Assembly (NCBI GenBank): GCA_044869275.1
Contig: JBIOXB010000137.1
Span: 1 to 64,000 of the forward strand
Source: a bacterium
Lineage (GTDB): Bacteria > Zhuqueibacterota > Zhuqueibacteria > Zhuqueibacterales > Zhuqueibacteraceae
Length of the DNA: 64,000 bases
Direction: 5' to 3'
Shown: piece by piece, positions 1,655 to 6,456 of the stretch
Layout of the letters: each line of letters starts with the position of its first letter
How positions within the stretch are numbered: the stretch's first letter is position 1
Made by a program: the position numbers and the translations under genes
Notes under the pieces: generated by a model
What the model was told of the DNA's origin: nothing
Seen by the model: only the letters and a program-made list of their open reading frames with translations
Databases searched by the model: none

Positions 1655-1683
1655 TTGCATAAGACTTTCATTTTTTGTATATA
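1655..1683 (+). promoter_or_regulatory. Sigma70-like promoter for the retron operon
   Basis: TTGCAT (1655-1660), 17-bp spacer, TATATA (1678-1683), AT-rich upstream tract. Confidence 0.6.
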
Positions 1684-1689
1684 GTATTC

Positions 1690-1979
1690 AGTTGGGTGCT
1701 ACGCCCTGTTCTTTGAAATTGGAATGATCATGTGGTGCAAGTCGCAGAATTTCTCCTTCGACGCCGTCTAATTTATTCGTCCGGCGTCAAGCTCCTGTTT
1801 GGGAGCATAAATGGATCTCAAATCCAACTCAGGTTGCTAGATCTGAGACGCTTTTGCGCAGTACGGGAAGTATATGCCTGTTTATCCTCAACAACGGCAT
1901 ATTCGTTCACAGGTTTTTGGAAGGATGAGTAAGATATATTCATTCCTGATTAGCTACCAATTTCAAAAGGAGAAGTTCA
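1690..1979 (+). ncRNA. Putative retron msr-msd non-coding RNA
   Basis: a1/a2-like 11-bp inverted repeat TTTGAAATTGG (1712-1722) / CCAATTTCAAA (1957-1967) enclosing hairpins at 1760-1788, 1791-1806, 1816-1848, 1872-1902 and 1923-1946; upstream of a retron RT. Confidence 0.75.
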
Positions 1980-2243
1980 ATGACCGATGATGACGCTCAA
2001 GAACGGGCGTTAAGTTTGCTTGAAGAAGCTCTACAAAAAGCAGAGATGCTTTTGACTTCTTCAACACATGATCAATTGTTAGTTAGGTCTCTTTTACATG
2101 ACCTGACGAGATTAAAAACACAACTGGATGGTTTAAGGCTCAGTGGTGTTCCTCGGAAAGTGCCGGACGACGAATTTTGGCCGGTAGTTTCGCTGATTTT
2201 TTCGAAGATAGCTGAACTGCTAGTTGAAAAGCTCTTCAAATGA
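1980..2243 (+). CDS. Small helical protein, candidate retron effector/toxin
   Basis: 87 aa; strong RBS AAGGAG; coiled-coil-like N-terminus and amphipathic C-terminal helix FWPVVSLIFSKIAELLVEKLFK; lies between the ncRNA and HTH-RT. Confidence 0.7.
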   Translation: MTDDDAQERALSLLEEALQKAEMLLTSSTHDQLLVRSLLHDLTRLKTQLDGLRLSGVPRKVPDDEFWPVVSLIFSKIAELLVEKLFK

Positions 2244-2336
2244 TCGCCGAGGCAATCTCAATAAAGTAGGTTACGGGAAGAGACTTCCAAAACTGTCATC
2301 AATTTTCACTAAATATACACGCGCGAGGTCGTTGCC

Positions 2337-2681
2337 ATGACTCAGATGGGAGATGTGCTCAAGCATCTACGAATAGCATCACGTATTAAACAGAAAGCAA
2401 TGGCTGAACAACTTGGTATCTCACCAACCTATCTTTCGCTAATTGAGAACGGCCAACGAGAGCCAAGTATTGAAATCTTAGAAAAATACGCCGGCTCACT
2501 CAACGTACCCTTGGCCTTCCTTATCCTGCAAACTGAGGGCGATCTCCAGAGCTTAGATACTGAGCAACTGGAGTTGTTCGAACAAATTCGAAGACTCTTG
2601 TTTGACTTCCAGAAACTTAGATCTCAATCATCAGTGAAAAAACCCCATGGGAAGCAGTTCAAGAAAATGCGAGACTCTTAA
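2337..2681 (+). CDS. XRE/Cro-C1 family HTH protein (retron-associated)
   Basis: LKHLRIASRIKQKAMAEQLGISPTYLSLIENGQREPSIEILEKYA; overlaps the RT start by 35 nt. Confidence 0.9.
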   Translation: MTQMGDVLKHLRIASRIKQKAMAEQLGISPTYLSLIENGQREPSIEILEKYAGSLNVPLAFLILQTEGDLQSLDTEQLELFEQIRRLLFDFQKLRSQSSVKKPHGKQFKKMRDS

Positions 2682-3597
2682 AATTCATACCCACAAACAT
2701 CTTCAGTACCAGCTCGGCCTGCCATTAGGTTCGCTTTTCAAAATTGCAGATAACATTGCAAGGTATTATGAACGTTACGAAAGTGCCAAATCAGGAAAAC
2801 ATAGAATCTATTACAATCCAAAACCTGAATTGCGCGAGGTTCAAAATCGAATAAAGCAGTTACTCGAGCGTCTTTCACTGCCAGAATATTTGAAAGGCGG
2901 GATCAAGGGTGGGTCTGCGTTTACAAACGCTCAAAATCACCTCAATGCAAAGTTCTTACTGAATCTTGACGTTTCCAATTTTTATCCTACCATAAAACCC
3001 AAACGCGTTTATCAGTTGTTTATAAAGCTTGAATGTCAGCCTGATATTGCAAGGCTGCTGACAAGATTAACCACCGCCGACTATCACCTACCCACTGGAT
3101 TCATCACAAGTCCATTGATCGCCAATTTGATCATACACGATTCCTTCGGAGCACGGCTGTACGAATTAGCGCAGAGCCACAAGGCAAAATACACTCAATT
3201 CTATGACGACACGACGATTTCGGGTGGAAACTCCATTTCTCGATTGCTTTTAAAGGCTAAATCAATAATTGCACAATCTGGCTTCAAAGTACATCCGAAC
3301 AAGGGTGGGTTCTTCATTGGAAAAGAGAGGCCAGCAGTCACTGGTTTTCGAGTAGGAAAAAGAATTACTATTGATCGAAAGTATCGCAGAGACTTAAGAA
3401 AAATTCTCAGCGATTGTATAAGAATCAATCCTTCAGAATTCATTCGCTCGAAATTGCTTCCCGATGGTGCGAGACGATTTGATACTGTCGAAACTTTTCG
3501 ACAACACCTTCAGGGACGCGTGAACTACTTGAAGCACGATCCCATACAATTCAAACGGTTCAAAGAACTTTTTGATCAAATTGATTGGGAGAATTAG
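2647..3597 (+). CDS. Retron-type reverse transcriptase
   Basis: 316 aa; region X NAQNH (NAxxH), LDVSNFYPTI, LPTGFITSPLIANL, catalytic YTQFYDDTTISG, region Y VTG; no maturase or endonuclease domain. Confidence 0.93.
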   Translation: MGSSSRKCETLKIHTHKHLQYQLGLPLGSLFKIADNIARYYERYESAKSGKHRIYYNPKPELREVQNRIKQLLERLSLPEYLKGGIKGGSAFTNAQNHLNAKFLLNLDVSNFYPTIKPKRVYQLFIKLECQPDIARLLTRLTTADYHLPTGFITSPLIANLIIHDSFGARLYELAQSHKAKYTQFYDDTTISGGNSISRLLLKAKSIIAQSGFKVHPNKGGFFIGKERPAVTGFRVGKRITIDRKYRRDLRKILSDCIRINPSEFIRSKLLPDGARRFDTVETFRQHLQGRVNYLKHDPIQFKRFKELFDQIDWEN

Positions 3598-3976: not shown

Positions 3977-4445
3977 CTAAGAAGCCTGCAACTCCTCCAA
4001 GCAAGAAACAAAACCAATTTTATATCTGCCCAAAATACGCCGCACATATCCCTTGCCGCACCAATAACTCAGCACGATAATTATCAACCCGCCGGCGAGC
4101 CAGAGGAAAACAGTGGTAGGCTCGCCGCTATGTTTGGCAAGCATGAAGAATTCCAGAAGCACGATCATACTCACGATGAGCACCGTGTAAGTTTTCATGG
4201 TGGAATCCAGTTTGCCAATCATGTAGGTCAGGGATTCGCGCAGGCTCCCGGTCAAATGCACGGAGCGCAGTTGCCGGGACTTGAACGAGAGTGTGGCGAT
4301 GAGCATGCCGACCAACAGCAGCATGAATCCCAAGTAGAGCGCGTTGGTCAAATATTCAGGCCTTGCGAAGCATTGGTAAAGACGATGGCGAGGATTATCG
4401 GCAACCGGAGATTTCCGTGCATAGCCTGCGGATTTTCTGCGAAAA
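3977..4445 (-). pseudogene. Degenerate duplicate of the membrane-protein gene at 6941-7537
   Basis: 3948-4445 aligns by eye to 6912-7425, with a small in-frame deletion, a frameshift near 4350 and no 5' end. Confidence 0.85.
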
Positions 4446-4529
4446 CTCGACAAGAACCTGCTGGTTACCCCGTGTAGTGGCATAGACTCTACTCACTAAC
4501 GACCTTTGCAACTCTCTTACGCAGTTTCG

Positions 4530-4652
4530 TAGAGTTGATATTCTCCTTTCATCTCGAACGAGAGAGCCGAAGAGCCCCGCCCATTTCACCAAGTAGCGCC
4601 GTAAAATCGGCAGGATTTTCTGTTTGATCTCGTCAATATTATTTGGGGCCAT
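4530..4652 (-). pseudogene. Truncated duplicate of the nucleotidyltransferase gene at 5264-5554
   Basis: MAPNNIDEIKQKILPILRRYLVKWAGLFGSLVR nearly matches the N-terminus of 5264-5554, then diverges before DxD. Confidence 0.8.
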
Positions 4653-4699
4653 GGTTCATTCCTCATTGATCCTGCCAATATCCAATGGCCTGTCTCCAT

Positions 4700-5059
4700 T
4701 CATGCCTGCGCTACGCGCGTCCGGTTAGACAAACGCTTGGCGCCCGCTTTCGGCTTGTGCATTTGTTCTGAGGAATTGACCAAACCTACTTGAAGCCGCT
4801 TTCCTAATGCCAACGCCGCACGTTCCAAGGTTTGCAGGGTAACAGAACCGTTTTCAGGGTCAAGCAAACGCTCAAGCGCGGCACGGCTTGTTTTCATGCG
4901 TTTTGCCATCACCGTTTTGGTAATGTTGGACGATTCCATCAACTGTGATATTTGATAAGCAACGCCCCGTTTGACTGCTACGGCTTCGGCTTCAACAAGC
5001 AAACCTTCATCCTCAAGAAATTCATCAAAATTACTGCCCACATACTTCTGGTTCATCAT
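4700..5059 (-). CDS. HigA-like XRE-family antitoxin
   Basis: MNQKYVGSNFDEFLEDEG...TKTVMAKRMKTSRAALERLLDPENGSVTLQTLERAALALGKRL; own GAGGAG RBS. Confidence 0.8.
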   Translation of the reverse strand: MMNQKYVGSNFDEFLEDEGLLVEAEAVAVKRGVAYQISQLMESSNITKTVMAKRMKTSRAALERLLDPENGSVTLQTLERAALALGKRLQVGLVNSSEQMHKPKAGAKRLSNRTRVAQA

Positions 5060-5074
5060 TGACTCCTCATCATT

Positions 5075-5179
5075 GATTCTCTTTTCTGAACGCGATAAGC
5101 TGCGAAACCATTCTCGAACAGGTTCATTGCCCGATTCGGTTCTATAAAAATTGCCTTGCAGGCGCACCCCGGTGTTCAT
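5075..5179 (-). pseudogene. N-terminal remnant of a RelE/HigB (gp49-like) toxin
   Basis: FYRTESGNEPVREWFRSL is the typical N-terminus; only about 35 codons remain, running in frame into the antitoxin. Confidence 0.75.
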
Positions 5180-5263
5180 AGAATAAATGTACTACTTTTG
5201 ATACTCACAGTCAAACGCTGACTTTGACTAAAATGTCAGAAATGTACAAACTAACATCCTGTT

Positions 5264-5554
5264 TCATAAAATGACCAACTGCTCTCGTAAGATGGCGTCT
5301 TTAATCGTCGGCTTGATTGTGTCATACTCCACCAAATCCACGCGCCGCTCCAAACTGTCTTCAATCTCCTGTTCGATTCCGATGAAGTCGAGCAGGCTGA
5401 TGTTCCTGTCGATTTCCGCCAGAATGTCAATGTCGCTATCTTCCTTGATTTCGCCTCGAACCAGAGAGCCGAAGAGCCCCGCGCGTTTCACCGCGTGGCG
5501 GCGTAAAATCGGCAAGATCTTCTGTTTGATCTCGTCAATATTGCTCGGCAGCAT
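5264..5554 (-). CDS. Minimal nucleotidyltransferase (MNT/MntA-like)
   Basis: LFGSLVRGE..SDIDIL, RRVDLV motifs; 96 aa. Confidence 0.9.
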   Translation of the reverse strand: MLPSNIDEIKQKILPILRRHAVKRAGLFGSLVRGEIKEDSDIDILAEIDRNISLLDFIGIEQEIEDSLERRVDLVEYDTIKPTIKDAILREQLVIL

Positions 5555-5699
5555 GGTTACACCACAAGAGTAAAGTCAAACTTGCAGGAATTATTCAATT
5601 ACAGTCAATTCTAGAAAGTTCAAATCTATCCTTGATTGTCCGAAAAAAGTATGCTATTTTTTCTCGGATCAAAATTGTACTCATGGTTTGACATCATGA

Positions 5700-6059
5700 A
5701 TGAATAAGCCAAGAGAAAACGTTATGGGTCTTTCTCAACCTGGAACGACAGAAGTAGCCGCACGGATCACCCAAAGAATTGTGGAACGTTTTCATCCACT
5801 GCGTGTCATTCTATTCGGCTCTCATGCGCGCGGCGAGGCAGACAGCGACAGTGATTATGATCTGCTCATCATCGCGCCTTCAGATAAACCTCGTTGGCAA
5901 CGCACAGTGCCGGTATATCGTGCGCTTGCAGGAATGGGCGTTCCCAAAGATATTGTCTGGTGGACACCTGAGGAGATCGCAGAGTGGGACGGCGTAAAAT
6001 CGCATTTCATCAATACCGTCCTTCGCGAAGGAAAAGTTCTTTATGAAAACGCCATTTGA
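5700..6059 (+). CDS. Nucleotidyltransferase domain protein (MNT antitoxin)
   Basis: ILFGSHARGEADSDSDYDLLII; overlaps the HEPN gene. Confidence 0.9.
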   Translation: MNKPRENVMGLSQPGTTEVAARITQRIVERFHPLRVILFGSHARGEADSDSDYDLLIIAPSDKPRWQRTVPVYRALAGMGVPKDIVWWTPEEIAEWDGVKSHFINTVLREGKVLYENAI

Positions 6060-6456
6060 TAACGCCAAAGGACTTTTGGAAAAAGCGGCCAACGATTTAG
6101 TGGCAGCACAAGCTACAATGGCCACCGGTCGAGCGCTGGACACGGTTTGTTTCCATGCCCAGCAATCCGTCGAGAAAAGTTTGAAAGCAATACTCGCGTT
6201 GCATGATATTGAATACCCGCGACGGCACGATTTGAATGAGTTGATAGAATTGATCAGGCCGCTTCTCCCAGAAATCATCTCATACGAAAATCGCATCATG
6301 ACCTTGTCCCCGTTCGCTGTTGAAATTCGGTATGACACTCTGTTTGATCCATCAAGCGAAGAAGCTCACGAAGCATTAAAACTTGCAGATGAGTTTCACA
6401 CCTTTACCAGCAAGATCGTCGAAACACAAGCTCCCAACATGCCGAGCAAAAAATGA
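6043..6456 (+). CDS. HEPN domain protein
   Basis: CFHAQQSVEKSLKA, HDL, AVEIRY motifs; coupled to MNT. Confidence 0.9.
   Translation: MKTPFDNAKGLLEKAANDLVAAQATMATGRALDTVCFHAQQSVEKSLKAILALHDIEYPRRHDLNELIELIRPLLPEIISYENRIMTLSPFAVEIRYDTLFDPSSEEAHEALKLADEFHTFTSKIVETQAPNMPSKK

Follow-up and report, generated by a model that had tools for sequence, protein, structure and literature searches.

The window analysed here, a 64,000-nucleotide stretch of a bacterial contig, carries close to its start three neighbouring genes on the forward strand, coding for a small protein (SP), a Cro/C1-type helix-turn-helix (HTH) protein and a reverse transcriptase (RT), which judged from sequence are a type VI retron in the order SP-HTH-RT (Table 1). 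An earlier, sequence-only reading of this DNA had called the locus a retron, and this call is borne out by the best PADLOC matches, HTH_VI and RT_VI, which place it in type VI; for the RT the next-best PADLOC model came at E 5e-51. The HTH reading frame overlaps the start of the RT gene, and the catalytic aspartates of the RT (D108, D187 and D188) are invariant in 5/5 close relatives. Four RT relatives lie at 65–77% identity, followed by a gap down to about 29–38%, and at 50% identity the window RT forms an isolated cluster. In this protein Thr replaces the usual Gln of the LPQG motif and the residue before the catalytic DD varies between F and Y; since the Thr is present in all five close relatives, it looks selected rather than decayed. 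A genome scan for DNA of close relatives returned two distant loci and nothing closer, a phylum-wide search for the locus was positive in one of 167 genomes, its own, and a viral scan with the close-relative alignment gave no match; a further viral scan brought up only contigs already known. A gene with a Phage_ABA_S domain lies upstream (972–1334), and downstream (4395–6456) come genes for an HTH protein, two nucleotidyltransferases and a HEPN protein, which makes the neighbourhood rich in toxin-antitoxin genes.

The SP, presumed to be the toxic effector, has three homologues (63–83% identity) with which it has its start site in common, and its AlphaFold2 model consists of three helices (pLDDT 77). 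No match was found for it in Pfam, PADLOC or PDB, and neither a fold search nor a protein atlas search was informative. Against the PADLOC SP_VI profiles, which we assume to include SPs of the cl2075 type, the window SP gave no match at E ≤ 0.1, with the SP of a related locus, L098, as positive control (E 5e-21); protein P0009 had no match to these profiles at E ≤ 1.

Table 1. Genes and leader features of the retron locus, in coordinates of the window
Feature	Position	Strand	Details
Probable sigma-70-type promoter	1655..1685	+	-35 at 1655-1660, -10 at 1678-1683 or 1680-1685; read from sequence
5' stem-loop	1694..1706	+	5-bp stem, 3-nt loop; pairs checked and folded
Pyrimidine-rich motif	1708..1717	+	directly after the 5' stem-loop, overlaps the outer helix arm
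S1a, outer helix 5' arm	1709..1722	+	1712-1722 paired to 1957-1967; possible extension by 1709-1711 over Shine-Dalgarno bases 1969-1971
Small hairpin	1731..1746	+	in the 24-nt linker between S1a and S2a; P 0.51 with S1 forced
Optional 4-bp extension	1741..1744	+	pairs with 1981-1984 over the start codon; in most unconstrained folds
S2a, anti-Shine-Dalgarno arm	1747..1758	+	pairs with 1967-1978
Enclosed multi-hairpin domain	1760..1958	+	presumed msr/msd (RT binding site, template); hairpins P >0.9
Candidate IR1	1909..1923	+	partner 2284-2296 lies beyond the SP stop; wrap-around like that of Sen3/Vpa2
S1b, outer helix 3' arm	1957..1967	+	directly before the Shine-Dalgarno sequence
S2b, Shine-Dalgarno sequence and spacer of SP	1967..1978	+	pairs with 1747-1758
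SP (small protein)	1980..2243	+	87 aa; ATG at 1980; presumed toxic effector
Candidate IR2	2284..2296	+	3' tail between SP and HTH
Cro/C1-type HTH protein	2337..2681	+	114 aa; PADLOC HTH_VI E 6e-23; Pfam HTH_3
Retron reverse transcriptase	2647..3597	+	316 aa; PADLOC RT_VI best, E 3e-69; start at 2647 inside the HTH reading frame

Upstream of the SP gene lies a structured leader: the region 1690–1990 had a z of −2.8, with 0/100 shuffles as stable, and an Rfam search found no family over it. Transcription probably starts near 1691. The promoter site from which this start is read was not picked up by a consensus promoter scan; clear TTGACA-type promoters stand at the equivalent place before the 5' hairpin in six related loci (L074, L025, L019, L005, L059 and L055), and a promoter-like site inside the leader (1906–1935) is at chance level, with five such sites found in the consensus scan against 4.9 expected. 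Stems near-identical to that of the window 5' stem-loop occur in L019, L025, L098 and L172. The pyrimidine-rich motif that follows it, scored with a hand-made pattern, was present in 15/41 related loci against 44/1184 host upstream regions, a contrast that is circular because the pattern came from those same loci. Two hairpins with U-rich tails resemble terminators, one at the 5' end of the leader (1694–1716) and one early in SP (1991–2022), with four found against 2.0 expected; they could possibly act as pause or attenuation sites.

The small hairpin in the linker competes with the optional extension over the start codon, and its sequence type recurs in L025 and L019, but there 3' of the best anti-Shine-Dalgarno (anti-SD) arm. 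Within 1691–1985 there are two 7-nt repeats, one of which has a copy in a loop at 1774 and one at 1900, where about three would be expected by a rough estimate; no repeat matching msDNA was significant. The candidate IR1-IR2 helix (13 bp interrupted by a 2-nt bulge, −12.0 kcal/mol) is likewise at chance level (p 0.41 and 0.71 in two tests), and among the 41 loci a helix of this type was significant only in L059, L046 and L098. The hairpin before the Shine-Dalgarno (SD) sequence (1920–1950) has the motif GGATGAGT in common with L025 and L019, and positions 1940–1951 are similar to an arm of the local hairpin around the ribosome binding site (RBS) of L125, L130 and L132.

By computation, the RBS of SP is hidden in RNA structure through a long-range helix (S2) and not through a local hairpin. 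The sequence-only reading had proposed that an anti-SD arm inside the retron RNA is complementary to the SD region of SP and that the pairing stops just short of the start codon, and both points hold: the arms form 11 Watson-Crick pairs and one G-U pair (U1750-G1975), and the last paired base, 1978, is one base short of the ATG. S2 belongs to the minimum-energy fold of 1690–1990, and its mean pair probability was 0.97–0.98 in the unconstrained folds listed, with 3' ends from 1985 to 2340. A helix covering the SD sequence as strongly as S2 (−14.8 kcal/mol) came up once in 1000 rounds of dinucleotide shuffling of the upstream leader (p about 0.002) and in 6/740 AGGAG-led open reading frames of the host genome, the SP gene being one of the six; four of the first 150 such reading frames reached p ≤ 0.05 for an SD-covering helix. 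Opening the ribosome footprint (1962–1992) costs 16.2 kcal/mol in the full RNA versus 7.2 kcal/mol with the anti-SD arm removed. Sequestration of the RBS is therefore supported computationally, both by the excess over chance and by the rise in opening cost from about 7 to 16 kcal/mol, in folds that are equilibrium, nested and protein-free. We consider it very likely that the anti-SD pairing is functional.

The outer helix, S1, is a perfect 11-bp repeat (1712–1722 with 1957–1967; p = 0.006 against shuffles), and S1 and S2 cross. It had been suggested that the target of the anti-SD arm abuts the 3' arm of the outer helix, giving a pseudoknot or competing conformers; the contiguous 3' arms and the crossing stand, but the two arms do more than abut, as A1967 is common to S1 and S2 and they therefore overlap by one base. 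S1 had a probability of at most 0.011 in the unconstrained folds where S2 reached 0.97–0.98, and when S1 was forced its extension covered SD bases 1969–1971. Folds of the growing transcript gave S1 at 0.86–0.96 with 3' ends at 1966–1975 and S2 at 0.80–0.98 from 1981 onwards. For the joint score of S1 and S2, 0/200 shuffles and 1/739 host genes were as good as the window, and 34/739 host genes reached −15 kcal/mol.

Contigs from RNA libraries of four studies match the locus with 95–99% identity, at 1706–1898, 1748–1978, 1813–1972 and 2062–2323; they attest presence only, with no strand, ends or transcript continuity, and none bridges leader and coding region. Those of three studies fall on the enclosed domain (1760–1958). 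Nine natural variants were counted, of which three keep a pair, four are unpaired and two break a pair, and as far as the S2 arms are covered no contig differs within them. HTH and RT had no RNA-contig cover, an absence that carries no weight. Both termini of one contig (1748–1978) fall no more than a few bases from the outer ends of S2, and a second contig stops at 2323, two bases short of the HTH SD sequence; each is a single contig whose ends are untrustworthy.

The comparison with relatives drew on a pool of 80 metagenome, 41 viral and 8 annotated loci, from which 41 loci with an SP-like reading frame before HTH or RT were selected by eye; the homologues used have RTs about 28–38% identical to the window RT and leaders that do not align, and all lie outside the clade of the locus itself (RT 65–77%). 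Three of the 41 were too short and six had no SD sequence, which left 32 for the long-range anti-SD test. A long-range SD-covering helix at p < 0.05 was found for 11/32 SP starts vs 0/28 HTH starts in the same test; the 11 positive loci are not independent, six of them belonging to one family. In the first of two alignable families, 4/12 anti-SD pairs change on both sides, with a covariation score equalled in 0/500 shuffles and lower in slid controls, and in the second 2/9 pairs change on both sides (10/500 shuffles as good). In both families spacer bases covary with the anti-SD arm; the family in which covariation is strongest lacks an outer helix and carries its anti-SD at the 5' end. Other type VI loci thus share such a pairing, in two families with compensation between its arms; 21/32 SP starts, on the other side, had no significant long-range anti-SD. 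Long-range anti-SD helices were found in 0/5 short-SP loci that are presumably Vpa2-like. In one type VI-like clade (L009, L011, L012, L014, L015 and L039) SP has no SD sequence and the leader is organised differently, so an anti-SD lock cannot apply there.

Crossing S1 and S2 helices were found in eight related loci (L059, L063, L055, L005, L057, L074, L025 and L019). In these and the window the leader has the same order, namely promoter, 5' hairpin (absent from L057), S1a, a linker of 24–36 nt, anti-SD arm, variable domain, S1b and SD sequence; the linker measures 26–36 nt in the eight homologues, which have six different arm sequences. Across the crossing-pair loci the anti-SD arm lies 147–324 nt upstream, and arm sequences differ between lineages. 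A joint S1+S2 test, which avoids hand-picked positions and whose criteria were set post hoc, after the loci had been seen, gave p ≤ 0.025 in 11/34 homologues, consisting of those eight and three members of the L022 family. The remaining 23/34 failed it, among them L004, L017, L044 and L045, which have related SPs. For the L022 family the crossing is doubtful, as its apparent outer helix draws on the invariant arm of a local hairpin and is therefore ambiguous. Removal of the 5' module lowered the opening cost of the footprint in 7/7 selected homologues, by 1.9–11.2 kcal/mol, and S1 preceded S2 in the growing folds of the window and of 6/7 homologues. A swap matrix of leaders is partly circular and carries no weight as proof.

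On a quick tree, which holds no type IV/V reference rows, the crossing-pair loci fall on several deep branches and the 11 labelled rows need three changes, and these rows may have a single origin. Several relatives are unusual in other ways. In L063 an internal deletion at about 1990–2150 shortens SP and leaves the leader, both helices, HTH and RT in place, while its neighbour L059 is intact; in L064 (276–923) SP and HTH read as a single open reading frame, in P0010 and P0024 the RT has an HTH-like N-terminal extension, and in L038 the RT reading frame is 404 aa long. Leaders of the L022 family contain two copies of a 9-nt direct repeat, one within the 5' hairpin and one some 80 nt upstream of SP, and each copy is able to pair with the tail that follows the SP stop; these leaders also have a second, local anti-SD about 60 nt before SP. 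Eight further plasmid loci were considered, among which SP-HTH-RT is annotated only in L172 (L174 is unannotated), and L098 had no E. coli match.

The computed results comprise the two helices, the degree to which they exceed chance, the fact that they recur in relatives, the order from S1 to S2 in equilibrium folds and the size of the lock. They are best explained by a type VI retron with a hybrid ncRNA-toxin message, in which two long-range helices that cross each other close the SP ribosome site one after the other, until a step linked to the RT releases it, a reading that we consider somewhat probable. A single hybrid RNA running from about 1691 through SP would serve as both ncRNA and toxin message. 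When the transcript has reached about 1966–1975, S1 would close the 5' domain and its short extension would cover part of the emerging SD sequence; once the spacer and AUG have emerged, S2 would take over as the stable lock, and S1 and S2 may partly coexist. Such a shielding of the emerging SD sequence by S1 during transcription, with hand-over to the S2 lock, is the most likely role of the outer helix, and translation would then be truly repressed. Release would come about through reverse transcription of the enclosed domain upon induction by phage, or through msDNA acting on that domain, with RNase H cutting the template; the anti-SD arm would thereby be detached or strained and SP, presumably toxic, translated. 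The agency of RT, msDNA or RNase H in this step we infer from Retron-Vpa2 alone.

The same helices could have arisen by chance, as complementarity between a pyrimidine run and a purine-rich SD sequence. Five other host genes among the 740 have an equally strong helix and the covariation data come from outside the locus's own clade, but the p of 0.002, the joint score of S1 and S2 (0/200 shuffles, 1/739 host genes) and the recurrence and covariation in type VI relatives make such an accident very improbable. A rather unlikely but more substantial alternative is post-translational control of the kind described for Retron-Sen3, in which the helices would be merely structural, SP would be made at a basal level and neutralised by HTH, and the trigger would act on the protein complex. 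According to the Sen3 preprint text, that retron has the same 5' stem-loop, an RBS predicted to lie in a basal stem and a constitutive SP; the 5' stem-loop and motif of the window resemble those of L172 and of L098, whose SP matches SP_VI, and the window SP, with 87 aa and three helices, is nearer to the 79-aa Sen3 type than to the 55-aa Vpa2 type. Against this, the dedicated 12-bp anti-SD of the window is lacking in L098 (best −2.1 kcal/mol) and weak in L172, an opening cost of 16 kcal/mol is hard to reconcile with steady translation, and in two families the spacer covaries with the anti-SD arm.

S1 and S2 might also coexist as a pseudoknot that doubles as the junction for priming, with either S1 or S2 as a1/a2, and reverse transcription from there through S1b would open the ribosome site in cis. 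This geometry would account for the 3' arms, which are contiguous or nearly so, and for the linker of 24–36 nt in 9/9 loci while the enclosed domain varies, and adding S1 on top of S2 gains 8.6–9.4 kcal/mol before any pseudoknot penalty. Usual pseudoknot penalties are 8–10 kcal/mol, however, about equal to the gain, and helices of 11 and 12 bp, each a full turn, would probably require threading of the 3' tail. As to a branching G, which would be expected after the 5' arm of a1/a2, the role that the sequence-only reading gave to S1, none is conserved directly after S1a; by eye a G lies within 2 nt after the anti-SD arm in about 7/11 lineages (the window, L059, L055, L025, L019, L057 and both alignable families), but it is missing in L074, L044, L005 and L045, and where present it often opens a stem. 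In Vpa2, moreover, the preprint maps the msDNA template to the first of the arms, at a distance from the one with the RBS. We regard a pseudoknot that is also the priming junction at this locus as improbable. The broader proposal, that a conserved two-helix clamp at the RBS is present in many type VI retrons and is at once a coexisting pseudoknot and an RT priming junction, where reverse transcription through the bases 5' of the SD sequence, followed by RNase H, frees the toxin message in cis, we hold to be unlikely. If true, such a clamp would be the missing riboregulator that links DNA synthesis to toxin translation. The Vpa2 preprint text leaves the msDNA-responsive RNA elements open and that of Sen3 finds no translational control; the two short helices, whose arms vary and which point changes can disrupt and restore, make the question directly testable in a third lineage.

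The preferred reading, a message shut by S1 and S2 in turn, has precedents of several kinds. As described by Mestre et al. 2020 (PMC7736814), type VI retrons combine a clade 3 RT, a Cro/C1 HTH protein and a small three-helix accessory protein, a layout that the window fits, but with an SP of 87 aa vs 75–79 aa. Control of a type VI effector by derepression of translation, which the sequence-only reading had brought up, does exist in print for Retron-Vpa2 (Zhang et al. 2025, 10.1101/2025.10.22.683967). The mechanism put forward in that reading follows the logic published for Vpa2, and the novelty is lower than the reading assumed. There, according to the preprint text, ncRNA and SP share one hybrid RNA with the RBS and AUG in local stem-loops, deletion of the leader is toxic and SP translation depends on msDNA. 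The window matches Vpa2 in the order ncRNA-SP-HTH-RT and in a sequestered SP RBS, here predicted, but in the window an arm 220 nt upstream, together with a crossing outer helix, captures the RBS, whereas that of Vpa2 lies with the AUG in local stem-loops of the second arm. The SPs differ in length (87 aa in the window vs 55 aa in Vpa2), and the conserved 7-nt direct repeat that Vpa2 has in msd and riboregulator loops finds candidate counterparts in the window only in 7-nt repeats that are not above chance.

Retron-Sen3, of type VI cl2075 (Garcia-Rodriguez et al. 2026, 10.64898/2026.04.27.721009), has in its preprint text an RBS predicted in a long-range basal stem, an alternative IR1-IR2 fold, a 5' stem-loop needed for defence and a constitutive SP neutralised by HTH. 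The window resembles it in a 5' stem-loop of 5 bp that stands shortly ahead of the 5' inverted repeat, which fits Sen3's '5'-conserved stem-loop' and precedes S1a directly, in its predicted alternative conformers, and perhaps in an enriched transcript running to the HTH RBS. The Sen3 text has a single basal stem with a local alternative to it, whereas the window adds a second, upstream anti-SD that crosses the outer helix; IR1-IR2 flanks SP in Sen3, but the window candidate is not above chance and the window SP has no SP_VI match. A Sen3 primer scan matched only four non-coding stretches. By analogy, Sen3 warns against generalising, as a predicted hidden RBS there goes with a constitutive SP. 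Sequestration of the RBS for a type VI SP in a shared ncRNA-mRNA is thus already known from the Vpa2 and Sen3 preprints; the new part is the recurring crossing two-helix lock, which was not found in the texts of the two preprints; their figures or supplements may show more. The word 'pseudoknot' has no matches in those two texts or in the text of a 2026 retron survey (PMC13712802), with the same proviso for figures and supplements.

Outside retrons, the nearest parallels are type I toxin mRNAs. In aapA3 (PMC6733600) successive anti-SD pairings are reported to block co-transcriptional translation of the toxin, and the proposed hand-over from S1 to S2 would fit this succession; unlike the window, aapA3 as described there relies on local hairpins plus a long-distance 3' arm, has an antisense antitoxin and has no RT. 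The mRNA of timP (PMC11228461) is described as having mutually exclusive conformers with a pseudoknot, which in that case activates translation, and it too differs from the window in its antisense antitoxin and the lack of an RT. We take the likeness to aapA3 and timP as a working analogy and not as kinship. The lock would also connect retron effectors with the co-transcriptional locking for which type I toxin mRNAs are known.
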